Shown here: piece by piece, positions 661 through 27,567 of the stretch
Layout of the letters: each line of letters begins with the position of its first letter
How positions within the stretch are numbered: position 1 is the first letter of the stretch
Assembly: GCA_942493105.1 (NCBI GenBank)
Contig: OW818668.1
Coordinates: 1,410,001 to 1,442,000 of the forward strand
Direction: 5' to 3'
DNA length: 32,000 bases
Source: an uncultured Erysipelotrichaceae bacterium
Lineage (GTDB): Bacteria > Bacillota_I > Bacilli_A > Erysipelotrichales > Erysipelotrichaceae
Notes under the pieces: generated by a model
Seen by the model: the letters and a program-made list of their open reading frames with translations, nothing else
Told to the model about the DNA's origin: nothing
Database searches by the model: none
Made by a program: the position numbers and the translations under genes

Positions 661-3546
661 ATGTTGAAAATTTCTAGACAGCATTTCATTCGCAATGGCG
701 TCATTATGTTAACGATCACCGCACTTATATGCGGGGCTTTGTTGTTAAGCTTGATGTCTGAAAGTATAAAAGTCGTTAATCAAGATCCTGATGTGATCGA
801 ACCTGATGGAACCAGTGCCCTTCATGCTTTGGTGATCCATGAAATCATGAGCTCTAATAAGGGCGCCGTAGCAGATCCCCAAGGCAATACCTATGATTGG
901 ATCGAATTGTATAACGGAACCAGCCGAGACATCGACTTAAGTAATTATGGATTAAGTGATACTAAAAATGAAACCAAGTGGATCTTTCCTAAGACCATTA
1001 TCAAAGCAAAGACCTTTTTAGTCATCTATTTGACCAATAAAACAATGCCTGGATTATATGCTAATTTTGGCTTAAAAAGTGAAGGCGGCGAGACTGTCGT
1101 TTTAAGGGATTCAGGAGGTATGATCGTTGATCAAGTGGATGTCCCAGCTTTAGGTGCCAATTGGGTCTTGGCTAGAAACAATAGTGGATCATGGGTTATT
1201 TATGATCAGGCTACTCCTGGATTTTCAAACACAGCTTTAGGATTTGATGCTTATATCGCATCGATCACCAAAGAAAAAGGGGCTGTCTTGATCAGTGAAG
1301 TGTTCCCTAGGAATGCTGGCAACTTTAAATCGGATTTGGCAGGATTACCTGGATATATTGAAATTACCAATACTGGAACTTTATCAGTCAATCTAGAAAA
1401 CTATTCGATTGGAGATGAATTTACTTCACCCTTTCAATGGGGCTTTCCTTCAATCAGTTTGGAAGCAGGTCAATCGATTGTTGTCTATACTTCAAATTTA
1501 AATCGAAAAGAAGGGGAACTGCATGCGGATTTCAGTTTGAATGCGCAAAATGGTTCAGTTTTCTTAAGCGATGGGACAGGTCATATCATTGATCGTGTGG
1601 ACTATAAAATGTTGCCTAATGGTTATGCTTTACAGAGAAATAACGGCGTTTATGAAGTGTCGGCTGCCCTAAGCCCAGGTTATCCAAATACGATCAGTGG
1701 GATTACCGCTTATCAAAAGACACTAAAGACACCCAGCGGTTTGATCCTTAATGAGATCATGACCAACAACAATACACTTCTAAAACACAATGGAGCCAAT
1801 GCCTACAATTGGGTCGAATTAAAAAATAATACCAATACCACCATCGACTTAAGCGAATATACGATTTCTGAATCTTTCAATGTGCTCAATGCGGTTTCAT
1901 TGCCTAAAGTATTGCTTGAACCAGGAGCTTATATCATATTAATGGGTTCTGGAGATGCCTCATTAAGCACAAGTATTTATCATCATATCGACTTAAAGAT
2001 CAACAATGATGAATCTTTATATCTGTTTAAAGGTCAACAACTTCAAGATTGTTTATTTGCATCTGGGCTCAAAGCAGAAACCAGCTATGGACGAGCAGAT
2101 GATCATGGTTTTATCTACATGAATGATCCAAGCCCCAATGCTGCAAACAATTCAGGTGTTAGAGCCATTAGTATCGCAGCAGTATCAACGATTGAAAGCG
2201 GTGTATATGATCGCTCAAGCATCACCTTTAATTTACTATCAGGGGGGAATGTTTATTACACCACCAATGGTTCTACTCCCAATTCCAGTAGCCCCAAAGC
2301 CACACAACCCATCACCCTTTCAAAGTCAGCAGTTGTGAAAGCCATCACACTAGAAGATGGCAAATGGCCCTCTGAGGTCATTTCTTACACCTATATCATC
2401 AATGAAAAATTTACGTTACCCGTTGTTTCTTTATCAATGAATGAAGCACATTTCAGTGATTTACAAGCTAACCCTTGGAACAGCACATTGGAGTATCCTG
2501 GCTATATCGAATATTATGCAAATGATGGGGGATTTTCTAGTCCCTGCGGTGTCCAACTATTTGGAGGTTCTGTTAGGGGTTTGCCTAAAAAGAGTTTCGC
2601 AATTACATTTGAAGCACAGTATGGAGCCAGTAAACTAAATTATAAAGTATTCGAAAAACGGGATTTTTCAGTTTTTGATACCTTGGTCTTAAGGTCTGGT
2701 TCACAGGATTATGAAACGACATTTTTTAGGGATATTTTGGCGTCTTCTGTTATGGAAGATTCTGATACGGTAGAAGTTCAAGCCTTTACTTCCGTGATCT
2801 TGTTTATCAATGGTAAATATTGGGGACTTTATGATTTTCGTGAAAAAATTGATGATGATTTTATCGCAACCCATCTAAATGTCGATGAATCCACCGTTTC
2901 TGTCGTTAGGACAGGAGGTTCGATTTCGGCAGGTAACAAGATTGCATATAATGCATTGATGACTTATGTTGATACACATGATCTATCGATTCAATCCAAT
3001 TATGAACATGTTAAAACCTTACTCAACATTGACAGTTATATCGACTTTTGGATCGCAGAACTCTTTACAACCAATAATGATGTCATCAATACCCGCTATT
3101 TTTCTTCGACCGAGTATGATGATGGAAGAATAAGTATGATTGCCTATGACTTTGATTTTGCCTGGTATTTTCCAGATCGAGAATATTATAAATTCATGAC
3201 TGATCCTGCTGGGATGAGTCGGCTTTTGGTTTCAACTTTACTGAATCGTCGACTTTTTGAAAGCGAAGCTTATCGTACACGTTTTTTAGAGCGTCTCAGT
3301 TTGAATCTCAAGACCATATGGAAAGAAGAAAATGTTCTGGCAAAACTAGAGATGCTTTATACGACATTGAAACCTGAAATCAGACGTGACTTTCAGCGAT
3401 GGAACCTAGATCCAAATTCATGGGAAGGCAATGTCGATTTTTTAAGAAACTTTATAAAATCACGTACCAAAAGCTTACTTAAACAAACCAAAGCTTTCTT
3501 TAACTTAACCCAAGCTGAATTTGATGCTTACTTTGGAGACTTATAA
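661..3546 (+). CDS. CotH-family atypical kinase-like protein: N-terminal membrane anchor, three lamin-tail domains (LTD), a chitobiase/Fn3-associated-like module and a C-terminal CotH domain
   Basis: 961-aa ORF. A basic N-terminus (K3, R6, R11) precedes a hydrophobic helix (VIMLTITALICGALLLSLM). Three repeats have the LTD pattern (IHEIMSSN..YDWIELYN..IDLSNYGLSD; LISEVFPRN..GYIEITN..VNLENYSIGD; ILNEIMTNN..YNWVELKN..IDLSEYTISE). The segment VYYTTNGSTP..AVVKAITLEDGKWPSEV resembles a chitobiase C-terminal module. The C-terminal ~370 aa (FRDILASSVMEDS..ILFINGKYWGLYDFREKIDDDF..FDFAW) matches the CotH pattern. Confidence 0.8.
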   Translation: MLKISRQHFIRNGVIMLTITALICGALLLSLMSESIKVVNQDPDVIEPDGTSALHALVIHEIMSSNKGAVADPQGNTYDWIELYNGTSRDIDLSNYGLSDTKNETKWIFPKTIIKAKTFLVIYLTNKTMPGLYANFGLKSEGGETVVLRDSGGMIVDQVDVPALGANWVLARNNSGSWVIYDQATPGFSNTALGFDAYIASITKEKGAVLISEVFPRNAGNFKSDLAGLPGYIEITNTGTLSVNLENYSIGDEFTSPFQWGFPSISLEAGQSIVVYTSNLNRKEGELHADFSLNAQNGSVFLSDGTGHIIDRVDYKMLPNGYALQRNNGVYEVSAALSPGYPNTISGITAYQKTLKTPSGLILNEIMTNNNTLLKHNGANAYNWVELKNNTNTTIDLSEYTISESFNVLNAVSLPKVLLEPGAYIILMGSGDASLSTSIYHHIDLKINNDESLYLFKGQQLQDCLFASGLKAETSYGRADDHGFIYMNDPSPNAANNSGVRAISIAAVSTIESGVYDRSSITFNLLSGGNVYYTTNGSTPNSSSPKATQPITLSKSAVVKAITLEDGKWPSEVISYTYIINEKFTLPVVSLSMNEAHFSDLQANPWNSTLEYPGYIEYYANDGGFSSPCGVQLFGGSVRGLPKKSFAITFEAQYGASKLNYKVFEKRDFSVFDTLVLRSGSQDYETTFFRDILASSVMEDSDTVEVQAFTSVILFINGKYWGLYDFREKIDDDFIATHLNVDESTVSVVRTGGSISAGNKIAYNALMTYVDTHDLSIQSNYEHVKTLLNIDSYIDFWIAELFTTNNDVINTRYFSSTEYDDGRISMIAYDFDFAWYFPDREYYKFMTDPAGMSRLLVSTLLNRRLFESEAYRTRFLERLSLNLKTIWKEENVLAKLEMLYTTLKPEIRRDFQRWNLDPNSWEGNVDFLRNFIKSRTKSLLKQTKAFFNLTQAEFDAYFGDL

Positions 3547-4223
3547 TGGAATACCGCCATGAACTAAAGTTCATCATGACGCCGACCAATGCGATGCTTC
3601 TTAAGAAAATCTTGCGCAATTTAATGGAAATCGATCGTAATGGGGACGCGAATGGATGTTATATGGTAAGAAGTCTCTACTTTGATACCTTGGGAGGCGC
3701 AGCATTCTTTGATAAAATGGATGGGGTAGAATATCGTAAGAAATACAGAATACGTTACTACAACAGCAATACGGACTTCATCCGAATGGAATCTAAGATG
3801 AAAATTGATGACCTGTCGGTTAAGAAACAAGAACGAATCGAATTGAAACAAGCTCAAGACCTCATTCAAGGTCACATTGAATCTGTTCCATTAAAACCAA
3901 ATTCCGTCATGACCGATTTTGTATGTGATCTAAAGTTACAAGGATTAAGGCCTTCTGTCATCGTGGATTATCAAAGAACAGCTTTTCTGCATCAAGCACT
4001 GGATGTGAGGATCACCTTCGATGAGAATATACGATCACGAATCTATGATACTGATTTGTTTAAAACAAATTTTGCCTCCATCAGAGTCTTAGATCCCAAT
4101 GAAGTTGTCTTAGAAGTCAAATACAACGATATTATTCCGCAATCCATAGCCGATGTGATCAAGCATGTTCCGATGACACGGTTGGCGGTCAGTAAATATG
4201 CATATTGCTACAACAAAAAATAG
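3546..4223 (+). CDS. VTC-domain / triphosphate-tunnel-metalloenzyme (TTM) protein, polyphosphate-polymerase-like, soluble
   Basis: 225-aa ORF. The start overlaps the CotH stop (TAATG). It has the N-terminal YRHELKF (ExK-type TTM signature) and alternating charged beta-strand motifs (VRSLYFDT, KYRIRYY, RMESKMKI, VIVDYQRTAF, VRITFDENIR, VLEVKYN) typical of bacterial VTC-domain proteins. No hydrophobic segments. Confidence 0.7.
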   Translation: MEYRHELKFIMTPTNAMLLKKILRNLMEIDRNGDANGCYMVRSLYFDTLGGAAFFDKMDGVEYRKKYRIRYYNSNTDFIRMESKMKIDDLSVKKQERIELKQAQDLIQGHIESVPLKPNSVMTDFVCDLKLQGLRPSVIVDYQRTAFLHQALDVRITFDENIRSRIYDTDLFKTNFASIRVLDPNEVVLEVKYNDIIPQSIADVIKHVPMTRLAVSKYAYCYNKK

Positions 4224-4232
4224 GAGGATTTC

Positions 4233-4904
4233 ATGGAAATCATCGAACTGATTCAGAATGCGATCGTACAACAGTTTACCGGCACCATATCACTAACCAG
4301 TATCTTATTATCACTGTTTAGTTCCTTTGTGATTGCTTTGTTTATTCTTGTGGTCTATAAGCGAACCTACAATGGGGTCGTAATGTCGAGATCCTTCAGT
4401 TTACTGTTGGTGCTCTTGGCCATGGTTACTTCATTAGCCGTTAGAACCATCAGTTCTAACTTGGCTTTATCCTTGGGGATGGTGGGTGCTTTATCCATCG
4501 TACGTTATCGTACAGCCGTCAAAGATCCCATGGATACCGGTTTTATCTTCTGGGCCATCATGGCTGGGATCATGACCGGGATTGGTTTGTATCTGATTGC
4601 CATCGTGTCTGCGTTAGCGTTGGGTTTATTGTTTATGTTGGTGTTTGGCTTTCAAATCAAACGAAGCGCTCAATTCTTATTGATCGTACGTTATGAATCG
4701 TTAGCTCATGAAGCTGTATTGACGGCTTTATCTAAATTACCTGCGCATAAACTTAGAAATAAAACCATGGTGGGTTCAACGATCGAACTGACTTATGACA
4801 TTGAAATCAAAGCCCATGAAGAACAGATCGTAGACCCCATCAAAGCCATCCGTGGCGTAGAATCCGTGAATCTGATTTCTTATCAACATGATTATGGACT
4901 ATAA
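4233..4904 (+). CDS. DUF4956-family polytopic membrane protein with a C-terminal soluble domain
   Basis: 223-aa ORF with AGGAGG 6 nt upstream. At least four hydrophobic segments lie in residues ~20-140. It carries the conserved-looking core GALSIVRYRTAVKDPMDTGFIFWAIMAGIMTGIG, which I recognise as DUF4956-like. The last ~75 aa are hydrophilic. Confidence 0.65.
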   Translation: MEIIELIQNAIVQQFTGTISLTSILLSLFSSFVIALFILVVYKRTYNGVVMSRSFSLLLVLLAMVTSLAVRTISSNLALSLGMVGALSIVRYRTAVKDPMDTGFIFWAIMAGIMTGIGLYLIAIVSALALGLLFMLVFGFQIKRSAQFLLIVRYESLAHEAVLTALSKLPAHKLRNKTMVGSTIELTYDIEIKAHEEQIVDPIKAIRGVESVNLISYQHDYGL

Positions 4905-4931: not shown

Positions 4932-4956
4932 AGTGAATCAGAAAGTCTGTGATAAA

Positions 4957-5682
4957 ATGAAACCTGTGAAAAACACATACGATGAGATCCTTGAAACCAT
5001 CGATCATGCTTTATCCAAAGGACAAATCAAAACAGCTTTGGACTTGATCGATGAAGAACTGCGAATGCCTTATGTTCCGTCTTATGTTTTGGCTAAACTG
5101 ATGCAGTTTAAGGAGATCGCGCTAACGGCTCAAAAAATGAATCAAGAGATTCATTTGGATATGAGCGAAGAAGGGATCTTGGCTTATCTAAAACAAGATG
5201 AGCTTCATCAGCTCAGAGCCCTAGAAGCTTTTAGTGTCATGAATATGCGTTCTGTCATCCCCTTGGTTCAAAAAGCTTTCGATCTGATCGATAAAAGACT
5301 ATTGAAGTGCCTTTTGTGCAAATTGACCATTGAGCAAGCTTTGACTGAATCCTTTACCTTCAGTGATGAAGGGATAAGGTATGAATTCATCCCGGCTGCT
5401 TTGACTTTACCTGAAGACAGTGAAGGCATTCAGAAAGCAAAAGCTTATCTTAAGAGCTGGCTTGAGGATGATGATCCGTCGATGCTGAAGTTGTGTTTGG
5501 AACAAATGGAATTAGAAAGCTTGTTGAAACTGCCTGAAACGATTGATGAAGACGAGGCTTTTGATCTAGCCTTTCAAATTCTGGAAACCATTTTTCTGAT
5601 GTTGTCGACCAAGGAACGCTTTGAAGCATTCCTCATCGATAAAGGACTTCGAAAAAGCGGTCGTTTAGCACTCTTTAATTGA
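4957..5682 (+). CDS. Hypothetical all-helical acidic protein (possibly DUF3196/MPN330-like)
   Basis: The ORF track starts at GTG 4933, but that codon abuts the terminator hairpin, so the in-frame ATG at 4957 (MKPVKNTYDEILETIDHAL..) is more plausible. No catalytic motifs recognised. It sits directly upstream of tig-lon. Confidence 0.5.
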   Translation: MKPVKNTYDEILETIDHALSKGQIKTALDLIDEELRMPYVPSYVLAKLMQFKEIALTAQKMNQEIHLDMSEEGILAYLKQDELHQLRALEAFSVMNMRSVIPLVQKAFDLIDKRLLKCLLCKLTIEQALTESFTFSDEGIRYEFIPAALTLPEDSEGIQKAKAYLKSWLEDDDPSMLKLCLEQMELESLLKLPETIDEDEAFDLAFQILETIFLMLSTKERFEAFLIDKGLRKSGRLALFN

Positions 5683-9348: not shown

Positions 9349-9926
9349 TGGCTGGTTTCCAGCAAGCCGTCTTTGTGACGACAGCCGTATCTAAAACAGG
9401 CTTTGCCTTAACGGATTTGCCTGAATTGGTATTGGCTGGAAGAAGCAATGTCGGAAAGTCGAGTTTCATCAATACCCTATGTCGCCAAAAGTCGCTGGCC
9501 TATGTTGGCAAACGTCCTGGTAAGACCCGCTATATCAACTTTTATCAAGTTGAAGGATTATTATCCATGGTGGATGTTCCAGGTTATGGTTATGCCAATC
9601 GATCAAAAAGCGAACTCAAAGCGTATGGTACCTTGATGGAAGACTACTTCAACACGCGTCAAAACATCAAAGCGGTGATCTTGGTCATCGATTCACGTCA
9701 TGGTTTGACCGGCGATGATGAAGATATGCTGAACTATGTCACTGAAAAGAAACTGCCATTGTTGATCGTTGCAACCAAGTCTGATAAGTTGACTCAGTCT
9801 GAAAAGATGAAGACCAATAAAGAACTTCAGTTAAGATTTGGAAGCAATGTGATCTTATTTTCTGCCCTTAGACATTTGGGCATTGAAGAGGTCGAAAACT
9901 GGATCATGAATAAAATAAAAACCTAA
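9348..9926 (+). CDS. engB: Ribosome-biogenesis GTPase EngB/YsxC
   Basis: 192 aa with G1 GRSNVGKSSFIN, G3 DVPGYG and G4 TKSDK. The start overlaps the lon stop (TAATG). Conserved lon-ysxC synteny. Confidence 0.9.
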   Translation: MAGFQQAVFVTTAVSKTGFALTDLPELVLAGRSNVGKSSFINTLCRQKSLAYVGKRPGKTRYINFYQVEGLLSMVDVPGYGYANRSKSELKAYGTLMEDYFNTRQNIKAVILVIDSRHGLTGDDEDMLNYVTEKKLPLLIVATKSDKLTQSEKMKTNKELQLRFGSNVILFSALRHLGIEEVENWIMNKIKT

Positions 9927-9944
9927 GCATGCTTAGGTTTTTTT
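9921..9944 (+). terminator. Rho-independent terminator after engB
   Basis: Palindrome ACCTAAGC-AT-GCTTAGGT followed by a run of 7 T (9938-9944). Confidence 0.75.
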
Positions 9945-9952
9945 GATATAAT
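9944..9952 (+). promoter_or_regulatory. Extended -10 promoter element (TGaTATAAT) upstream of the 565-aa ORF
   Basis: TGATATAAT lies 24 nt upstream of ATG 9977. AGGAGA SD at 9965-9970. Confidence 0.4.
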
Positions 9953-9976
9953 AGGGCAATAGTTAGGAGAAAACCG

Positions 9977-11674
9977 ATGAAACAAGCCCTCTACATCAAA
10001 GACAATACAGCCATCATCAACTTTTCTACTTTTTTTGCACAGACGACGGATGAATTCATCTCTTCGGATAGTTTCAAGAAAATGATGAGTCATTATGTGA
10101 GCTCTTTAAAGATAGAAAACAAAGAACGTTATGATTGGTTGACCAAAGGGCTCAGTGAATCAGAAGCCTTGAATCAATTGGTGAAGGTCTTTAAGCTATT
10201 GTTGGTATTGGATGTCGAAGAAGTTTCACATCCCTTGCTTAGTGACCGCAATCGCTTCAACGCCATGATTGAGGACTGGTATAACAGCTGGAGACAACTT
10301 CAACGCTGTTCTGTCATCAAGATCTCTTCTTCTCACTCTGGTCAAGTCAATAACTTCATCGAAGCGGACACGAAATTTAACGCATTGATCCTATCTGTTT
10401 ATCGTGGGATCCAAGAAAAAATACAAGGTCATAAAAATCGTGTTTATCGTCAACTTCAAGCTGGAACAAATGCTTCGATGGTGCTTAAGGATGTCAGATG
10501 GCCCATTTTTGAAGGCTATGAAGCTTTAAAAGGCATCCCGTTTGTCGATTCAATGTTGATTCGGGCCCCTTTACTGCTTCATCCGAGAAGCTCAAAACGA
10601 GTGGGTTCATTTGAACCAGTCTTGGTCAATCCATTTAATGGGTTGACACTCGATCGTGAAGAATGGTTTTGTTATCCCGCTAAAGTAGGCAGTTTACTGA
10701 TCTTGATTTATGTTCATATCGACTTTACCTTCTCTGGGATCACCAACGCCAATCTCTTTGAATTGGCCAGCGATGAAGAAGTCTTAAAATCTAGACCAGA
10801 TGGGATCGTCTTATTTGGACTCAAAGATAAATCCGATGAATGTACGTATACTTATGACGATAAAAATAAAGTCTGGATCGGTAAAGTACCTTATCAAACC
10901 CGTATCGAATACTTTGGGTATATGAAAAAAATGGTCTTGACCATTCATAATGTGATCATGATGAAAAATGGATGGTTACCGATCCATGGGTCCATGATCA
11001 ATGTCAATTTTAAAGATGGTCGAAAAATAGGGGTCGTCTTTATGGGCGACAGTGGAGCTGGTAAATCCGAAACCATTGAAGCCATACAAATGTGCGGTCA
11101 TGAAGATCTTGTCTCCATGGATGTCATCTTTGATGATATGGGATCCTTTCATGTTGAAAATGGTCAATTGGTGGCTCAAGGAACGGAGATTGGTGCTTTC
11201 ATCAGATTGGATGATCTTGATAAAGGTTCACCGTACAAAACCATGGATCGTTCCATCTTTATGAATCCGGAATCTACCGTCAATGCCCGAGTCGTTATTC
11301 CTGTCAATACCTATAAAGAAATCGTAAAAAATCACAAAGTCGATTACTTCTTATATGCCAATAATTATGCTGATAAAACAGGCTTATTGATTGCGAAAAG
11401 TGCGGCTGATCTTAAGCACGTCTTCATCGAAGGGAAACGAATGGCCATGGCGACGACCCATGAGTCAGGTTTATCGACCACGTATTTTGCCAATCCTTTT
11501 GGACCCATGCAAAATCAAGCCCTGTGTGATCCCTTGATCGAACATTACTTCAAAGTCCTCGATGAAACACAGGTCAAGACTGGTGAAGTTTATACAGGTC
11601 TAGGCCTAAAAGAAAAGGTGGATAACCACCTCGAATTGACTGCCCAAGCTGTCTTAAATCTCATTCACGACTAA
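9977..11674 (+). CDS. Uncharacterised PEPCK(ATP)/HprK-superfamily P-loop kinase-like protein
   Basis: 565 aa. The motif order parallels ATP-PEPCK: HPRSSKRVG (cf GRSPKDK); YFGYMKKMVLTIHNV..LPIHGSMINV (cf YxGEMKK..MNY.LP...MHCSAN); P-loop FMGDSGAGKSETI (cf GLSGTGKTTLS, but identical in style to HprK GDSGxGKSE); IFDDMGSF (cf IGDDEHGW); NARVVIPV (cf NTRxxYP). Substrate-binding residues differ from canonical PckA. Confidence 0.55.
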   Translation: MKQALYIKDNTAIINFSTFFAQTTDEFISSDSFKKMMSHYVSSLKIENKERYDWLTKGLSESEALNQLVKVFKLLLVLDVEEVSHPLLSDRNRFNAMIEDWYNSWRQLQRCSVIKISSSHSGQVNNFIEADTKFNALILSVYRGIQEKIQGHKNRVYRQLQAGTNASMVLKDVRWPIFEGYEALKGIPFVDSMLIRAPLLLHPRSSKRVGSFEPVLVNPFNGLTLDREEWFCYPAKVGSLLILIYVHIDFTFSGITNANLFELASDEEVLKSRPDGIVLFGLKDKSDECTYTYDDKNKVWIGKVPYQTRIEYFGYMKKMVLTIHNVIMMKNGWLPIHGSMINVNFKDGRKIGVVFMGDSGAGKSETIEAIQMCGHEDLVSMDVIFDDMGSFHVENGQLVAQGTEIGAFIRLDDLDKGSPYKTMDRSIFMNPESTVNARVVIPVNTYKEIVKNHKVDYFLYANNYADKTGLLIAKSAADLKHVFIEGKRMAMATTHESGLSTTYFANPFGPMQNQALCDPLIEHYFKVLDETQVKTGEVYTGLGLKEKVDNHLELTAQAVLNLIHD

Positions 11675-12456
11675 TCAACCAAATAGCCCAATCGACTCAG
11701 AATCTTAGCGATGCCATCATGATCGACATCTTCTGTAACATAATGGGCTATTTTTTTTAGGGGTTCAACCGCATTGCCCATCGCCACACTGATGGGAGCA
11801 TGTTGCAGCATTTCATAATCGTTAAAGGAATCCCCAAAGGCAATATAATAGTCAGAGTAACCATAGGTCGATAAGACATCAAGGATACTGCTGTGTTTAG
11901 ATACACCGGCTGACATGACATCGGCTGATGTCGTCATGGTGGCTTTTATGTCCAGATCGTCTATATCATCAAAAATGCGCCAATCAAAACCAACTTTCTC
12001 ATAGAGGGCGATTTTATCAATGGGTTCATTTTCATAAAGTTTAACCTTTGGGATGGGTTCTTGATAATAAGCATGAGACGTTTTGACATAGTCATTGGGT
12101 TCTTGACTCAACATATCGCCTTGTGGACCTCCACAAAACACAGGAATATGATGTTCCTTGGCTCGTTTGATCAAGGTATGTATCGTTTCAGGATTGACGA
12201 AATGTTGGCGGATGACCTTGAAGTTTTCATCCAGGATGACATGTCCATTACTCAAGATCACAAATTTCCATTTGACAACATGTTCAAGATGAAGTTGAGA
12301 AAACATATATTGATCTCGCCCTGATGCGATACAAATCGCATAACCTTGATCCGCTAACTTATTTAAAGCAAGAATGGCTGAGTGTGGGATCTCATGGGTA
12401 TTGGTATCGAGTAAGGTTCCATCGATATCAAAGAATAGGGTGTTGGGTAAGTTCAT
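11671..12456 (-). CDS. HAD-superfamily Cof-type (IIB) sugar-phosphate phosphatase
   Basis: 261 aa. Motif I FFDIDGTLLD, motif II SGR, motif IV GDSFNDYEML. Confidence 0.85.
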   Translation of the reverse strand: MNLPNTLFFDIDGTLLDTNTHEIPHSAILALNKLADQGYAICIASGRDQYMFSQLHLEHVVKWKFVILSNGHVILDENFKVIRQHFVNPETIHTLIKRAKEHHIPVFCGGPQGDMLSQEPNDYVKTSHAYYQEPIPKVKLYENEPIDKIALYEKVGFDWRIFDDIDDLDIKATMTTSADVMSAGVSKHSSILDVLSTYGYSDYYIAFGDSFNDYEMLQHAPISVAMGNAVEPLKKIAHYVTEDVDHDGIAKILSRLGYLVD

Positions 12457-16710: not shown

Positions 16711-17565
16711 ATGAACCGACTCAATCCTTTAAACCGATTCTTACTTAAACTCATAGCGGGTTTGCTTGCCATATCCGTGTTTTTAGCTGCAGTCAGATTT
16801 AATTCATCGTTACAAAGTTCAACCGATCAGGCTTTTGGTTTCTTTACGAGCTTAAGAGTGACCTTGTTTGATCAACCGATCCAAGCCTTGGGCAATTTCA
16901 TTACGGATTTTACGTCACTTTATGCCCTAAAGGCTGAAAATGATCGTTTACGTTTACAAATCGACATGCTTGAACAATTTCAAGCACGTTTAGAAGAAGC
17001 CTATCGCGATATTGAAGATCTAAAAGTGCTCAACGATCTTAAACAGTCGATGACAGAATATCATGTGATTGCGGCAATGGTGCTCAATCGTCCCGCTGAC
17101 AGCTTCAATCATAAGATACGTTTGAATGTTGGGACATTGGATGGGGTAGCCCTAAATGATGCGGTCATCAGTTCTGAAGGTTTGATTGGGAAAGTTGTGA
17201 CCGTGACGTCATCGACCTGTGATGTGTTGCTGTTGACCACTGAACAAGAACTCAACAAAGTATCCGTCAAGATCCAAATCTCAAAAACAGACACGATTGA
17301 AGCATTGCTGGAATATTATGATGTCAATGAAGGCGCCTATGTCTTAAGTCTGCTTGAAACCAGTTCATCTGTCGTTGAAGGTATGAGTGTCATCTCCAGT
17401 GGTTTGGGTGAAACTTATCCTAGCGGATTATTGGTCGGCAAAGTTTTAAAAGTTGATACCACGCAAAGTGCAGGCGGTATAAAAGTATTTGTACGTCCAT
17501 CTGCCGATTTTACGCATCTCAATTATGTGGCCATCGTCAAGCGGGGAAATCTCAATGTGGATTGA
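16711..17565 (+). CDS. mreC: Rod shape-determining protein MreC
   Basis: TM anchor, a coiled-coil (ENDRLRLQIDMLEQFQARLEEAYRDIEDLK), then the beta-barrel region (GLIGKV..; SGLGETYPSGLLVGKV). The track ORF starts at TTG 16669. ATG 16711 with AGGGGG 7 nt upstream is preferred. Confidence 0.85.
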   Translation: MNRLNPLNRFLLKLIAGLLAISVFLAAVRFNSSLQSSTDQAFGFFTSLRVTLFDQPIQALGNFITDFTSLYALKAENDRLRLQIDMLEQFQARLEEAYRDIEDLKVLNDLKQSMTEYHVIAAMVLNRPADSFNHKIRLNVGTLDGVALNDAVISSEGLIGKVVTVTSSTCDVLLLTTEQELNKVSVKIQISKTDTIEALLEYYDVNEGAYVLSLLETSSSVVEGMSVISSGLGETYPSGLLVGKVLKVDTTQSAGGIKVFVRPSADFTHLNYVAIVKRGNLNVD

Positions 17566-18106
17566 CCTCGCTTTTGTTTTTGCTGGTTTTACTCTAGACA
17601 GCATCTTAAGGATGATTTTTCCGATCGATCCGGCATTACGTTTTCTTGTCTTTGTGCCTAATCTGGGTTTTTTAGCGTTCTTGCTGGTTTCTCTTAAAAA
17701 AACTTTTCCTCAAGCGTTGATCATGGCTTTTTTATGTGGACTTACGGTTGATTTTTTAAGAAATGAAATGTTGGCCAATGTCATCGCCTATCCCATCAGT
17801 ATCTATGTCATCAAAGTATGGGCCAATCAACTCAATGAATCTATATTTGAGCAGGTTTTTATTGGAACGATAGGCTTGTTTCTAAAAGAGTTTATCTTGT
17901 TTGGGGTATTGACCTTGGGTGGAATCACCCACATCAGCCTCAACAATTGGTTTGTTAAACGTGAATTCTTAACGATCATTGGACATATCCCGCTTTTATT
18001 GGGTTTAAGTATGCTAAATCGAACCAAATCGGGGGCTCAAAATGTCTTAGAACGAAAGAAAAAGCGCCGGGAAAGAGTGCTTTGGAATCCTACTGTAAAG
18101 CCATAG
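17555..18106 (+). CDS. mreD: Rod shape-determining protein MreD
   Basis: A polytopic small membrane protein directly after mreC, overlapping it by 11 nt. The track ORF (from 17489) would lie inside mreC. ATG 17555 (MWIDLAFVFAGFTLDSIL) is preferred. Confidence 0.7.
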   Translation: MWIDLAFVFAGFTLDSILRMIFPIDPALRFLVFVPNLGFLAFLLVSLKKTFPQALIMAFLCGLTVDFLRNEMLANVIAYPISIYVIKVWANQLNESIFEQVFIGTIGLFLKEFILFGVLTLGGITHISLNNWFVKREFLTIIGHIPLLLGLSMLNRTKSGAQNVLERKKKRRERVLWNPTVKP

Positions 18107-24210: not shown

Positions 24211-25111
24211 CATCAATTTCGAACTCAATGAACAACAACAAGCAGCCCGTGCTTTATTGATCCAAAACGTCCTTAAAGATCCCAAAGTCATCGGCTTTAT
24301 GAAAGTTCATCATTTGGATGAATCCTTTATATCGAGACATGTTCAGCGTTTTGCGGATTGGTCGCAAGAACTGGGACGCTGTGACAATTGTCCAGGTTTA
24401 CATGCCTGCAAACAAAAAGAAACAGGACATTTCTTAGACCTTGAATTTGAAGGCATTTTACAAACGGTTTTTAAACCTTGCGTTTATCAAAGTGCTCAAA
24501 ATATAAAAACAGCGCATGAGAAACAATATTTGATCAGAGATGGCGGAAAAGAAGTCTTATTGGCTGAATTTTCAGATTTGTTGAATGCTGATTTTGATGC
24601 GACTTATGCGGAAAGCATTGCGAAAATCGCCTCATGGATCGAACAACCCACAGAAAAAGGCTTTTATCTGTATGGCAACAGTGGGGTAGGTAAGACCTAT
24701 TTGGCTTCTGCCGTATTAAACATTTATGCCAAACAAGGTTTAAATGTGGCTTTGGTTCATGTGCCTTCACTGGCCATCAAGGTCAAACAAAGCTTTGATA
24801 CACCCGATGTGATCGATTTTACAATGGCCATGATCAAAAAAGCCAGAGTTGTTGTTTTTGACGATATTGGGGCAGAGTCTTTATCGGGATGGTTTAGAGA
24901 TGAAATCTTATTGCCTTTACTGAACTATCGGATGGAACATCAAAAAATCACCTGGTTTACCAGTAATTTGAAAATCGATGGCTTACGCTCTCACTTCAGA
25001 TTCAATCTAAAAGGAGATGATGAGGCCTTAAAAGCCAACCGTTTGATGGAACGCATCGAAAGTTTGGCCAGTCCACTTTTAGTGGGTGGAAATAACCGCA
25101 GAAACAAGTAA
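24197..25111 (+). CDS. dnaI: Primosomal helicase loader DnaI
   Basis: 304 aa. N-terminal Zn-binding region (CDNCPGLHAC), AAA+ Walker A GNSGVGKTYL, Walker B VVFDDIGAE. Confidence 0.9.
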   Translation: MEKININFELNEQQQAARALLIQNVLKDPKVIGFMKVHHLDESFISRHVQRFADWSQELGRCDNCPGLHACKQKETGHFLDLEFEGILQTVFKPCVYQSAQNIKTAHEKQYLIRDGGKEVLLAEFSDLLNADFDATYAESIAKIASWIEQPTEKGFYLYGNSGVGKTYLASAVLNIYAKQGLNVALVHVPSLAIKVKQSFDTPDVIDFTMAMIKKARVVVFDDIGAESLSGWFRDEILLPLLNYRMEHQKITWFTSNLKIDGLRSHFRFNLKGDDEALKANRLMERIESLASPLLVGGNNRRNK

Positions 25112-25136
25112 AAAGATACACAAAAAGGCCTCATAA

Positions 25137-25145
25137 TGATAAAAT
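25137..25145 (+). promoter_or_regulatory. Extended -10 element TGaTAAAAT for pfkA-pyk
   Basis: TGATAAAAT lies 25 nt before ATG 25171. AAAAGGTG SD at 25158-25165. Confidence 0.4.
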
Positions 25146-25170
25146 TGATGAGGATAAAAAAGGTGCAGAT

Positions 25171-26133
25171 ATGATCAAAAGAATTGGTGTATTGACTTCA
25201 GGTGGTGACTCACCAGGCATGAATGCTGCCATCAGAGCGATCGTGAGATCGGCTTTGGCGCGTGGTTTAGAAGTGGTCGCCATTGAAGATGGTTATAAAG
25301 GCATGGTTGAAGGACGGATGTGGCAAATGAACACGCGAAGTGTCAGTGACATCATTCTAAGAGGCGGGACGATATTGGGAACCGCTCGCTTACCTGAATT
25401 CAAGGATCGTGCTGTCAGAGCAGCTGCCATTCGCAACCTTGAAGAAAACGGCGTGGAAGCCGTGGTGGTCATCGGTGGTGATGGAACCTATCGCGGTGCA
25501 CAAGCATTGACCGATATGGGCATCAACTGTATCGGATTACCTGGAACCATCGATAATGATGTGTCCTCCAGCGATTATACGATTGGTTTTGATACGGCCC
25601 TTAATACGGTCATTCAAAACATAGATAAATTAAGAGATACTTCTTCTTCGCATCATCGTTGCTCCGTGGTCGAAGTCATGGGCAATCGCTGTGGTGACTT
25701 GGCAGTTTTCGCAGGTATCAGCTGTGGTGCCGAAATGATCATTACCCCTGAAAGAGGCTATGATGAAGCAGCCGTTATCGCTAAACTGAAATATTTTGAT
25801 GAAGTACGTAAGAAACGGCATGCGATCGTTGTGATCAGTGAAAAGATCACGGACGTCAATGCCTTAGCCAATAAAATCAGTGAATCAACCAGTTTCTCAG
25901 GTCGTGCAACGGTTTTGGGTCACATCCAGCGTGGTGGATCCCCCACGGCATTTGATCGTGTCTTAGCGACCAGAATGGGCGATAAGGCGGTTGAATTGTT
26001 GGTTAATGGCATTGGTGGTCATTGTGTCGGCATGCTTAAAAACGAAATTGTATCCATGCCTATCGCAGAGGCTTTGGCATTGCCTAGAAGATCAAGAGAA
26101 GATTTGCTTGCCTTGCATGAAAGGCTGATCTAA
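25171..26133 (+). CDS. pfkA: ATP-dependent 6-phosphofructokinase
   Basis: 320 aa with GVLTSGGDSPGMNAAIR, IGGDGTY, PGTIDND and MGNRCGDLA. Confidence 0.95.
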   Translation: MIKRIGVLTSGGDSPGMNAAIRAIVRSALARGLEVVAIEDGYKGMVEGRMWQMNTRSVSDIILRGGTILGTARLPEFKDRAVRAAAIRNLEENGVEAVVVIGGDGTYRGAQALTDMGINCIGLPGTIDNDVSSSDYTIGFDTALNTVIQNIDKLRDTSSSHHRCSVVEVMGNRCGDLAVFAGISCGAEMIITPERGYDEAAVIAKLKYFDEVRKKRHAIVVISEKITDVNALANKISESTSFSGRATVLGHIQRGGSPTAFDRVLATRMGDKAVELLVNGIGGHCVGMLKNEIVSMPIAEALALPRRSREDLLALHERLI

Positions 26134-26142
26134 GGAGGTCAC

Positions 26143-27567
26143 ATGAATAAGATCCGAAAAACTAAGATTATATGTACACTGGGTCCTGCCAGTCAGACAA
26201 GAGAGATGATTGTCAGTCTTGCGGAAGCTGGAATGAACATCGTTCGCTTGAATTTCTCACACGGGGATCATAACGACCATGGCGAAAGAATCCGTTTGGT
26301 CAACGATGTCAATGATGTATCCGGCTACAATTTAGCCATCATGTTGGACACCAAAGGTCCAGAAATTCGTTGTGGAGAGATGGAAAACGGGATCCTTACC
26401 TTTAAAAAAGGGGATTTGGTGAAAGTAGTCCGTGAAGTCGTCATTGGAAACAATGAACGTTTCCATGTCGATTGTGCTGAAATGTATGAAGATGTCAAAC
26501 CAGGAAATTATCTGTTGATCGATGATGGAAAAATGAGATTGACTGTTCTTGAAGTCAAAGATGGTGAATTAAGCTGCAGAATAGAAAATTCAGGTGTCAT
26601 CAAAACGAAAAAAGGGGTCAACGTACCTAACGTTACCTTATCGATGCCTTTTATCTCAGAGAAAGACGATGCTGATTTAAGATTTGGATGTAAGATGGAT
26701 GTTGATTTTATCGCAGCAAGTTTTGTCAGACGTCCTGCGGATGTCTTGGCGATTCGTAAGATCTTGCTTGCCGAAGGTAAACCAAAGATTCAAATCATCG
26801 CTAAAATTGAAAATCAAGAAGGCTATGATAATCTGGAATCGATCTTAGAAGTTGCAGATGGGGTCATGGTCGCAAGAGGCGATTTGGGTGTTGAAGTATC
26901 TACCCAACTGGTTCCAATCTATCAAAAGAAAATGATCAAGATGGCCAATGAAATGGGTAAACCAGTCATTACTGCGACCCATATGCTTGAATCCATGATG
27001 GCCAATCCGCGTCCTACCAGAGCTGAAGCCTCAGATGTTGCCAATGCTGTACTGGATGGCTCAGATGCGATCATGTTGTCTGGTGAAACAGCGGCTGGTG
27101 AATATCCTTTAGAAGCCGTCAGAACGATGGATATCATCGCTACGGCCATGGAAGAAATCTTACCTTATCGCGAAAGATTGGATTTAGCCATCAAATCATC
27201 CCGCAAAACCATTCAAGATGCGATTGGGATCTCAGTCGCTGACTCTGCTTTACAGCTGGATGAAGTCAAAGCCATCATTGCGTTTACCCAAGGCGGATCA
27301 ACCGCAAAACGTATTTCTAAATTCAGACCTTCTGTTCCAATATTCGCGGTGACTTTTACAAAATCAGTTCAACGCAAACTTAATTTATACTGGGGTGTTA
27401 TCCCTGTCTTCTCAGACATTCAAAACAGTATGACCAATGATGATGAATTAGCCAGCATCATCGCCAAAGACAATGGGTTTAGAGCAGGTGACTTCGTGAT
27501 CATCACAGCTGGTTATCCAACCGGTGAAGGCACCGCAAACATGATGAAAATCGTCGAGGTAAAATAA
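26143..27567 (+). CDS. pyk: Pyruvate kinase (no C-terminal PEP-utiliser extension)
   Basis: 474 aa with KIICTLGPAS, NFSHG, MLDTKGPEIR and MVARGDLGVE. AAGGAGG SD. Confidence 0.95.
   Translation: MNKIRKTKIICTLGPASQTREMIVSLAEAGMNIVRLNFSHGDHNDHGERIRLVNDVNDVSGYNLAIMLDTKGPEIRCGEMENGILTFKKGDLVKVVREVVIGNNERFHVDCAEMYEDVKPGNYLLIDDGKMRLTVLEVKDGELSCRIENSGVIKTKKGVNVPNVTLSMPFISEKDDADLRFGCKMDVDFIAASFVRRPADVLAIRKILLAEGKPKIQIIAKIENQEGYDNLESILEVADGVMVARGDLGVEVSTQLVPIYQKKMIKMANEMGKPVITATHMLESMMANPRPTRAEASDVANAVLDGSDAIMLSGETAAGEYPLEAVRTMDIIATAMEEILPYRERLDLAIKSSRKTIQDAIGISVADSALQLDEVKAIIAFTQGGSTAKRISKFRPSVPIFAVTFTKSVQRKLNLYWGVIPVFSDIQNSMTNDDELASIIAKDNGFRAGDFVIITAGYPTGEGTANMMKIVEVK

Follow-up and report, generated by a model that had tools for sequence, protein, structure and literature searches.

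A widespread protein family that joins a phosphoenolpyruvate carboxykinase-like catalytic domain to an unrelated N-terminal module in Erysipelotrichales and other bacteria

A 32,000-nucleotide (nt) stretch of DNA from an uncultured Erysipelotrichaceae bacterium (GenBank assembly GCA_942493105.1, contig OW818668.1, positions 1,410,001 to 1,442,000 of the forward strand; the whole stretch is referred to as the window) contains a complete open reading frame (ORF) that encodes a protein of 565 amino acids (aa). The C-terminal part of this protein is related to phosphoenolpyruvate carboxykinase (PEPCK), and its first 250 residues form a module with a different fold. The gene, hereafter the target, extends exactly as given in a first-pass annotation that was made from the sequence without database searches. 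The promoter and the Shine-Dalgarno element of its own that were claimed for it could also be read from the sequence. The upstream tig-lon-engB unit ends in a terminator-like hairpin that includes the engB stop codon, is followed by a T-tract and was also flagged by a terminator scan. A candidate -10 box and an AGGAG element follow, and the consensus match predicts that the target is transcribed from its own promoter. At the 3' end, the stop codon overlaps by 4 nt (11671–11674) with that of a convergent gene for a Cof-type haloacid dehalogenase (HAD) phosphatase (11671–12456, minus strand); therefore, no intergenic terminator is possible between the two genes. The features of the gene and its 5' region are as follows.

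9917–9942, plus strand: terminator-like hairpin with an 11-bp stem at the end of the preceding tig-lon-engB unit (-11 kcal/mol, z = -4.0 against shuffled sequences)
9944–9952, plus strand: candidate extended -10 promoter element TGATATAAT (consensus match in the sequence)
9965–9969, plus strand: Shine-Dalgarno element AGGAG, 7 nt 5' of the ATG (read from the sequence)
9977–11674, plus strand: target ORF, 565 aa and a stop codon, with an ATG start (complete; ORF list)

The relationship to PEPCK became apparent from fold and profile-profile comparisons. A sequence-only profile search was uninformative, as the family profile matched PckA (the ATP-dependent PEPCK) among the PDB sequences at just 12 bits, ranked below ATP-binding cassette (ABC) transporters, and a fold search and hhalign were therefore needed. 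An AlphaFold2 model based on a 31-sequence core family alignment (A1) had a predicted local distance difference test (pLDDT) score of 85.1 and a predicted template modeling (TM) score of 0.87. When the whole model was compared with the PDB using Foldseek, the 35 best matches were all ATP-dependent PEPCKs (E 1e-16 to 1e-14), GTP-dependent PEPCKs came next (E ~1e-13), and none of the 50 matches listed was a structure of HPr kinase/phosphorylase (HprK/P). The TM score of the whole protein to PEPCK structures was ~0.48, at ~16–18% identity, which is the value that would be expected from a good match over the C-terminal 55% of the model only. The fold of PckA (EC 4.1.1.49; PF01293, TIGR00224; Escherichia coli 1AQ2/1OEN) is common to the C-terminal ~315 residues of the target. 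Alignment of A1 with a PckA profile (A2) of nine sequences, including E. coli pck from an annotated genome and eight divergent pckA genes from a plasmid and chromid collection, gave a probability of 95.5% (E 1.3e-8, 268 columns), and the probabilities against E. coli PckA and this profile ranged from 94.5 to 95.5%.

The target scored 28.4 bits on the Pfam model PEPCK_ATP (PF01293; cutoff 26.5) over residues 310–452, covering profile positions 173–317 of 465. Its orthologue in Limosilactobacillus fermentum fell below the cutoff (23.9 bits, profile positions 116–248), and the PckA of Staphylococcus aureus reached 742 bits over positions 4–464. On the curated PckA equivalog TIGR00224, the target obtained 21.5 bits (cutoff 590), and on the best NCBIfam PckA model, NF006821, 29.2 bits (cutoff 369), as compared to 792 and 848 bits for the S. 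aureus control on the curated PckA models. The first-pass annotation had proposed a distinct branch of the PEPCK-like superfamily that is not an orthologous PckA, and both parts of this proposal are borne out: the scores on the equivalog and the unaligned N-terminus place the protein outside orthologous PckA, and its relationship to the superfamily is evident from hhalign and Foldseek, with a borderline match in Pfam. The following features were mapped within the coding sequence.

9977–10726, plus strand: family-specific N-terminal module, residues 1–250 (folding alone, Foldseek, Pfam and PDB searches)
10583–10612, plus strand: loop PRSSKRVGSF, residues 203–212, with PRSSKRV at residues 203–209 (conservation, models)
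10727–11602, plus strand: PEPCK-homologous region, residues 251–542, corresponding to E. coli PckA 141–443 (hhalign, Foldseek)
10910–10930, plus strand: PEPCK-specific motif YFGYMKK, residues 312–318, against YGGEMKK of PckA (alignment)
10979–11002, plus strand: PIHGSMIN, in which H337 pairs with H232 and the HCSAN of PckA becomes HGSMIN (alignment)
11045–11071, plus strand: P-loop GDSGAGKSE, residues 357–365, of the HprK/P type by sequence (alignment)
11129–11143, plus strand: kinase-2 motif FDDMG, residues 385–389 (alignment)
11174–11221, plus strand: family-specific signature AQGTEIGAFIRLDDLD, 3' of a 7-residue gap at PckA K288
11282–11302, plus strand: NARVVIP, residues 436–442 (alignment)
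11432–11512, plus strand: predicted mobile active-site lid and FANPFGPxQ, residues 486–512 (pLDDT, conservation, hhalign)

The catalytic motifs occur in the same order as in PckA, and K318 and H337 are separated by 19 residues, the same distance as between K213 and H232 in E. coli PckA; both the order and the spacing agree with the first reading of the sequence, in which PRSSKRV, the P-loop, DD and NAR had also been located. Conservation was assessed in A1 and in 91 representatives of the family at the 50%-identity level. The pairs defined by hhalign (target and E. coli PckA, respectively) were Y312 and Y207 (kept in 78/91), G314 and G209, K317 and K212 (86/91), and K318 and K213 (72/91) in YFGYMKK; H337 and H232 (78/91); S359 and S250, K363 and K254, and S364 and T255 in the P-loop; D386 and D268 (81/91) and D387 and D269 (82/91) in FDDMG; N436 and N331, R438 and R333 (71/91), and P442 and P337 in NARVVIP; and T540 and T441 as well as G541 and G442 near the end of the aligned region. 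Except for S364, all of these residues are the same in both proteins. In PckA, K213, H232 and D269 are the Mn2+ ligands and T255 a Mg2+ ligand, K254 is the kinase-1a lysine, and R333 contacts the gamma-phosphate and the carboxylate of the substrate. H337 and D387, which are aligned to Mn2+ ligands of PckA, are kept together with K363 and R438 in 71–82 of the 91 representatives.

The PEPCK lid encloses a small substrate. The omega-loop lid was found in the target, where ATTHESG (residues 492–498) is aligned to LAGTERG of PckA. T494/E496/G498 pair with T394/E395/G397 of the PckA omega-loop and F504/F508 with F409/F413, all with identical residues, within an alignment of residues 486–512 to the PckA segment GFTAKLAGTERGIT...FSACFGAAF. 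Residues 489–511 are the sole stretch of the model with a pLDDT below 50, and they are highly conserved. The combination of low confidence, strong conservation and alignment to the PEPCK lid suggests a functional mobile loop. The mapped catalytic positions are all invariant in A1, and each is kept in 58–86 of the 91 representatives, most of them in more than 70, and this conservation across the family argues for an active enzyme. The family also has invariant motifs of its own, namely GTEIGAFxRLDDL, YANNY, GKRxAxxTTxExG and FANPFGPxQ; of these, the first, second and fourth are new relative to PckA. Within the AQGTEIGAFIRLDDLD signature, the conserved residues E404, R410, D412 and D413 lack equivalents in PckA. 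No match to the defence-system models of PADLOC was obtained for the target.

The nucleotide site differs from that of PckA. The P-loop reads GLSGTGKTT in PckA and GDSGAGKSE in the target, in which GDSGAGKSET is a Walker A motif of the HprK/P form GDSGxGKSE. When a 69-aa core segment was compared with the PDB sequences, the best match was Lactobacillus casei HprK/P, paired with GVVFMGDSGAGKSETIEAIQMCGH, in keeping with the HprK-type P-loop that had been recognized from the letters. HprK/P (PF07475, TIGR00679; L. casei 1JB1/2QMH) has almost the same P-loop and flanking residues, following the pattern G-V-x-x-x-GDSGxGKSET-x-x-x-x-x-x-x-GH; however, it has ~310 aa and a different N-terminal domain. 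On Hpr_kinase_C (PF07475), the target scored 16.7 bits (cutoff 33.3), with coverage of profile positions 9–51 of 171, and on TIGR00679 18.1 bits (cutoff 240), whereas Hpr_kinase_N gave no match in the 565-aa protein. Of the PckA residues that contact the ribose and the alpha-phosphate, K288 lies opposite a 7-residue gap in the alignment, whereas E297 is paired with G402. The alignment ends at T441/G442/W443 (NTGW), leaving the adenine loop (R449/I452/T455) with no aligned counterpart. The ATP-specific contacts of PckA (K288, E297 and the adenine loop) were therefore not found by hhalign, and the ribose and adenine contacts appear to be lost. Further changes relative to PckA include E210 to Y, C233 to G, L249 to D, T255/T256 to S/E, and D363 to N.

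The N-terminal module comprises a helical bundle (approximately residues 24–150), which is followed by a beta-rich part. When folded alone on a 16-sequence alignment, it reached a pLDDT of 83.7, and a Foldseek search of the PDB with this model yielded no matches at E<=1e-3 and no PEPCK among the top 50. The module matched nothing in Pfam or among the PDB sequences, and the alignment to the nine-sequence PckA profile still began at residue 251, with nothing upstream. Thus, the earlier statement that nothing is matched by the N-terminal ~200 aa is correct, and it applies to the first ~250 aa. Because the module gives no profile, fold or sequence match, residues 1–140 of PckA, including the GRSPKDK loop with R65, have no detectable counterpart in the target, and the R65-bearing N-domain of PckA was not found; the N-module occupies the place of that part of PckA. 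The residues that are invariant in the module include R106, R110, R143, R158, Q159, G163 and R208.

The first-pass annotation had also read PRSSKRV as the replacement of GRSPKDK, an equation that could not be sustained, as no alignment reaches this region and R204, the residue opposite R65 in that reading, is variable across the family (K, P, R, S, A or E), whereas R208 is invariant in A1 and kept in 70 of the 91 representatives. G210 and F212 of the PRSSKRVGSF loop are likewise invariant in A1, and K207 is kept in 40/91. The confidence of the loop was ~75 in the whole model and fell below 50 at residues 200–203 when the N-module was folded alone, and this drop in the absence of the C-domain suggests that the R208 loop packs against the C-domain at a domain interface. 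R208 is a candidate substrate-binding arginine and possibly a functional substitute for R65.

A word-indexed search retrieved more than 4,700 clusters (90% identity) related to the 565-aa protein. The best 120 clusters listed were nearly all 559–572 aa long, with 96–100% query coverage and 49–100% identity; Erysipelotrichaceae predominated among them, and the names given were ‘hypothetical protein’ or ‘phosphoenolpyruvate carboxykinase.’ When 1.84 billion representatives were searched exhaustively with the family profile, 695 matched at E<=1e-3, of which 186 were at E<=1e-30, and each of the 150 best matches listed scored at least ~150 bits, in comparison with 12–28 bits between PckA and the target family in either direction. 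With 695 matches among 1.84 billion representatives, the family appears to be compact and well bounded. At least 489 loci in a scan of species-representative genomes carry the family, and the hosts are mainly Erysipelotrichales, including Erysipelothrix, Allobaculum, Dubosiella, Faecalibaculum, Bulleidia, Turicibacter and Thomasclavelia. Further hosts are Mogibacterium, Peptostreptococcus, several Clostridium species, Desnuesiella, and Cetobacterium (Fusobacteriota). Full-length homologues thus span several orders and two phyla at 42–96% identity, and the L. fermentum orthologue (AYP99509.1), which is chromosomal, is 47% identical over residues 96–561.

Annotation pipelines uniformly name the L. 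fermentum orthologue ‘phosphoenolpyruvate carboxykinase,’ and a precomputed PF01293 match is absent from many members of the family. The naming is inconsistent because the scores straddle the Pfam threshold, and the database names are homology transfers from a borderline Pfam match. One member from Anaerorhabdus sp. (P0286, 567 aa) is called ‘energy-coupling factor transporter ATP-binding protein EcfA2’ by one source, a mis-annotation for which the P-loop was probably the trigger. Literature searches on the target family, DUF4914, PEPCK-like kinases, the PEPCK of Erysipelotrichaceae or Erysipelothrix, and lactobacillal pck found nothing on the target family or on DUF4914.

Several variants were observed at the margins of the family. 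A metagenome-assembled genome (MAG) of an uncultured Bulleidia sp. (CAKVLT01) contained two paralogues (L033 and L074; 46% and 42% identical to the query), and the gene has therefore been duplicated in some lineages. Residues 1462–1720 of a 2146-aa protein (P0262) matched family profile positions 260–493 (E 2e-40), and the PEPCK-like core may thus occur as a domain within a multidomain protein. A distant subgroup of ~650 aa (P0228, P0229, P0239, P0257 and P0269; 642–673 aa) kept YFGYxKK, PLHC, ADDMG, NAR, NNY and ANPFP, and its P-loop region did not align to the family profile; in this subgroup, the region may be interrupted by an insertion, or Walker A may have been lost. A subgroup of ~490 aa (P0208, P0214, P0232 and others) had a shorter N-terminus and drifted motifs.

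Another divergent group of PEPCKs (PCKs) had to be compared with the target family. In a 2007 phylogeny, the ‘PCKs’ of Streptococcus bovis and L. casei were singled out for an unusual P-loop and ATP pocket, and their motifs were given in its Table 2 as YFGE-LKK / SGSGKST / VLHDD (PMC2684135). This S. bovis type (BAE46992, ZP_00386357) resembles the target in its occurrence in Bacillota, its length of ~550 aa and its scores below the NCBIfam PckA cutoffs. It diverges from canonical PckA in that YFG..KK replaces YGG..KK and the P-loop lysine is followed by a serine, and its motifs (YFGELKK / GSGKST / HDD) can be set beside YFGYMKK / GAGKSE / FDD of the target. The group was recovered from metagenomes by a back-translated pattern, with one sequence 100% identical to the ‘PEP carboxykinase (ATP)’ of Streptococcus gallolyticus, where PEP denotes phosphoenolpyruvate, and the S. 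bovis/Enterococcus/Tetragenococcus group comprises at least 7,871 clusters. A representative (L173, 754–2394) obtained 68.7 bits on PF01293 over profile positions 70–439 and 122.7 bits on the NCBIfam PckA model that it matched best (cutoff 369). The alignment of this type (A4) with canonical PckA covered 354 columns, including VVGRTAxARR against TGRSPKDK (R65) as well as the C-terminal nucleotide region, whereas that between A1 and A4 covered just 89 columns (residues 309–401), and the N-terminal region of the S. bovis type is not common to the target family. Membership of the target family in the S. bovis/L. casei type was rejected on this difference in columns. By these alignments, the S. 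bovis type is a divergent full-length PckA, i.e., a second divergent PckA lineage, and the target family a separate, third lineage. In addition, DUF4914 (PF16260), which two members of the target family carry as a precomputed match, gave 18.9 bits on the target (cutoff 25.7) over residues 317–376 and 60 of 612 profile positions, a weak local similarity near the YxGxxKK motif and the P-loop. DUF4914 seems to represent a further branch of this superfamily that is likewise uncharacterised.

Judged from its sequence, the target is evidently a functional PEPCK-fold enzyme, as the metal, phosphoryl-transfer and lid apparatus is complete. We propose that it is a stand-alone cytoplasmic enzyme within the PEPCK/HprK P-loop phosphotransferase superfamily. 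The explanation that ranks first, and that we hold tentatively, is that it belongs to an uncharacterised family of PEPCK-fold phosphotransferases that carry out the same chemistry on a different substrate. In phosphoryl transfer by such an enzyme, one partner would be a nucleotide, or possibly pyrophosphate (PPi), and the other a small anionic substrate bearing a carboxylate or an enolate, which would be held on Mn2+ beneath the closing lid, as in PEPCK chemistry. The N-module, with its invariant arginines (R208 and others), would supply the acceptor-binding site and would probably select a substrate other than, or larger than, oxaloacetate or PEP. The donor would be either a nucleotide that is bound differently or PPi, the latter being possible because of the HprK-type P-loop and the missing adenine and ribose contacts of PckA. 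With slightly less assurance, the protein may be taken as the founding member of a third major enzymatic lineage with the PEPCK fold, in which the Mn2+- and lid-dependent enolate-phosphoryl chemistry would have been re-targeted by a new N-domain and combined with an HprK-like, possibly PPi-capable donor site for an undescribed reaction.

Several points weigh against this explanation. No biochemical, genetic or expression data for any member of the family were found in the literature. PPi or any other donor is speculation from the type of the P-loop and the missing adenine contacts, and R208 and other residues of the N-module would have to reach the active site. Furthermore, the kept Y207 and K212, which are specific to PEPCK and not superfamily-wide, fit an unchanged reaction on PEP and oxaloacetate equally well.

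The reading that ranks second, possible but less probable, is accordingly a functional, highly divergent third isoform of PEPCK, which would catalyze PEP + CO2 + ADP <-> oxaloacetate + ATP in the anaplerosis or gluconeogenesis of fermentative Bacillota, with R208 replacing R65. All PEPCK-specific residues of the catalytic domain are kept (Y207, K212/K213, R333, the ligands of Mn2+ and TxExG of the lid), as is the K213-to-H232 spacing, and the loop with the invariant R208 lies between two short strands, just N-terminal of the hairpin and helix that open the PckA-alignable region, in a topology that seems to resemble the surroundings of R65, the resemblance being one of topology and not of alignment. 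An anaplerotic role would be consistent with a widely conserved, stand-alone gene of housekeeping character. Automated pipelines name the L. fermentum orthologue PEPCK, and the S. bovis type, which is likewise very divergent, has been accepted as a PCK. However, the S. bovis type keeps the PEPCK N-domain, to which the N-terminal 250 aa of the target bear no likeness, and K288 and the adenine-binding loop are missing. The substitutions at E210, C233, L249 and T255/T256 also speak against this reading, and the ligand may be a different or a larger one, as suggested by the new invariant residues R410, D412, D413, R425 and R488 and by five invariant arginines in the N-module. The names of the pipelines rest on the Pfam scores on either side of the cutoff. 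Therefore, the claim in the first-pass annotation that this is ‘not a gluconeogenic PckA’ stands with respect to orthology and is unproven with respect to activity, given that the PEPCK-specific residues of the C-domain are all kept.

A protein kinase/phosphorylase similar to HprK/P, which would use ATP or PPi and recognize a protein substrate through the N-module, is improbable. HprK/P phosphorylates a protein, its P-loop is essentially identical to the GDSGAGKSET of the target, a weak match to Hpr_kinase_C was found, and the large new N-module could be a protein-docking domain. The catalytic H, DD and R positions are reportedly common across the superfamily, HprK included. Yet PEPCKs rank far above HprK in the fold search, the Hpr_kinase_C score is under its cutoff and limited to a short part of the profile, and there is no conserved neighbour gene to encode a substrate protein. 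To our knowledge, HprK/P has neither the YxGxxKK motif nor the PEPCK lid; both are kept in the target, and in PEPCK they serve small-molecule enolate chemistry. A pseudoenzyme, that is, a non-catalytic nucleotide-binding or regulatory protein derived from PEPCK, is the least probable of the four readings and very unlikely, because the metal and phosphoryl-transfer residues of the core family are invariant or nearly so across orthologues of 42–96% identity, the pattern of a working site, although the canonical substrate-binding N-domain and the adenine contacts are lost and motifs are degraded in some distant subgroups.

Apart from the target, the window is ordinary core chromosome, with tig, lon, engB, an MFS_2 transporter gene, radC, mreC, polA, fpg, coaE, dnaB-like and dnaI-like genes, pfkA, pyk, a ROK kinase gene and thrS. 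Two Cof-type HAD genes and a metallophosphoesterase gene flank the target in the window. Flanking ORFs of 78 loci were clustered, with Cof-type HAD phosphatases counted within four genes of the target, and no conserved neighbour gene was identified across these loci. The recurrent neighbours were unrelated housekeeping genes, each in a subset of the loci: two U32 peptidases (23/78), a SpoU methylase (17/78), ProS (10/78), an ABC exporter (9/78), a Bax-inhibitor protein (8/78) and Cof-type HAD phosphatases (7/78). The gaps 5' of the target across the 78 loci were mostly 50–200 nt. A relative whose protein is 60% identical kept the order tig-lon-engB-target and had genes for a DeoR regulator, a radical S-adenosylmethionine activase, a pyruvate formate-lyase-like enzyme and a transaldolase inserted before the Cof genes, and in relatives at ~50% identity the target was located in quite different genomic places. 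The phosphatase neighbours pointed out at the outset are therefore real in this window but reflect local synteny, and a functional link to phosphatases was rejected. The target behaves as a stand-alone unit. As it has its own predicted promoter and no conserved partner gene, the enzyme would act alone, with no dedicated operon pathway.

Other observations concern the remainder of the window. A DUF3196 gene (4933–5682, plus strand) lies directly 5' of tig, as it does in the 60%-identity relative (L001, 2909–3622), and the DUF3196 gene and the tig-lon-engB block form a conserved synteny. Three genes (661–4904, plus strand) abut and run in the same direction. One encodes a 961-aa protein that combines three lamin-tail domains with CHB_HEX_C/Fn3_assoc domains and a CotH kinase domain, and the other two encode a VTC-domain protein and a DUF4956 protein; the three genes resemble a polyphosphate/CotH-type cluster. 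After mreC comes a 205-aa ORF that starts with TTG (17489–18106, plus strand) and shares ~77 nt with the 3' end of mreC. Pfam gave no match for this ORF, and its position would fit mreD with a true start further downstream. Both GC content (0.46) and GC skew peak within the window at 25001–27000, where the pfkA-pyk pair is located.

Very few reactions of the PEPCK fold are known, namely those of the ATP-, GTP- and PPi-dependent PEPCKs and the phosphorylation of HPr. A widespread conserved family with a PEPCK core and a swapped substrate-binding half is a good place to seek a new activity in bacteria of the gut and of food fermentation, here Erysipelotrichaceae, L. fermentum, Turicibacter and Clostridium. 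The label ‘phosphoenolpyruvate carboxykinase’ feeds a link between PEP and oxaloacetate that possibly does not exist into metabolic reconstructions, and under the name ‘hypothetical protein’ the clearly enzymatic nature of the gene goes unnoticed. If the protein is a true PEPCK, the R65-bearing N-domain would be dispensable for the reaction, which would be of interest to PEPCK enzymologists. If instead it catalyzes an undescribed reaction, hundreds of gut and fermentative Bacillota would harbor an enzyme that has been mis-annotated as PckA or as a hypothetical protein.

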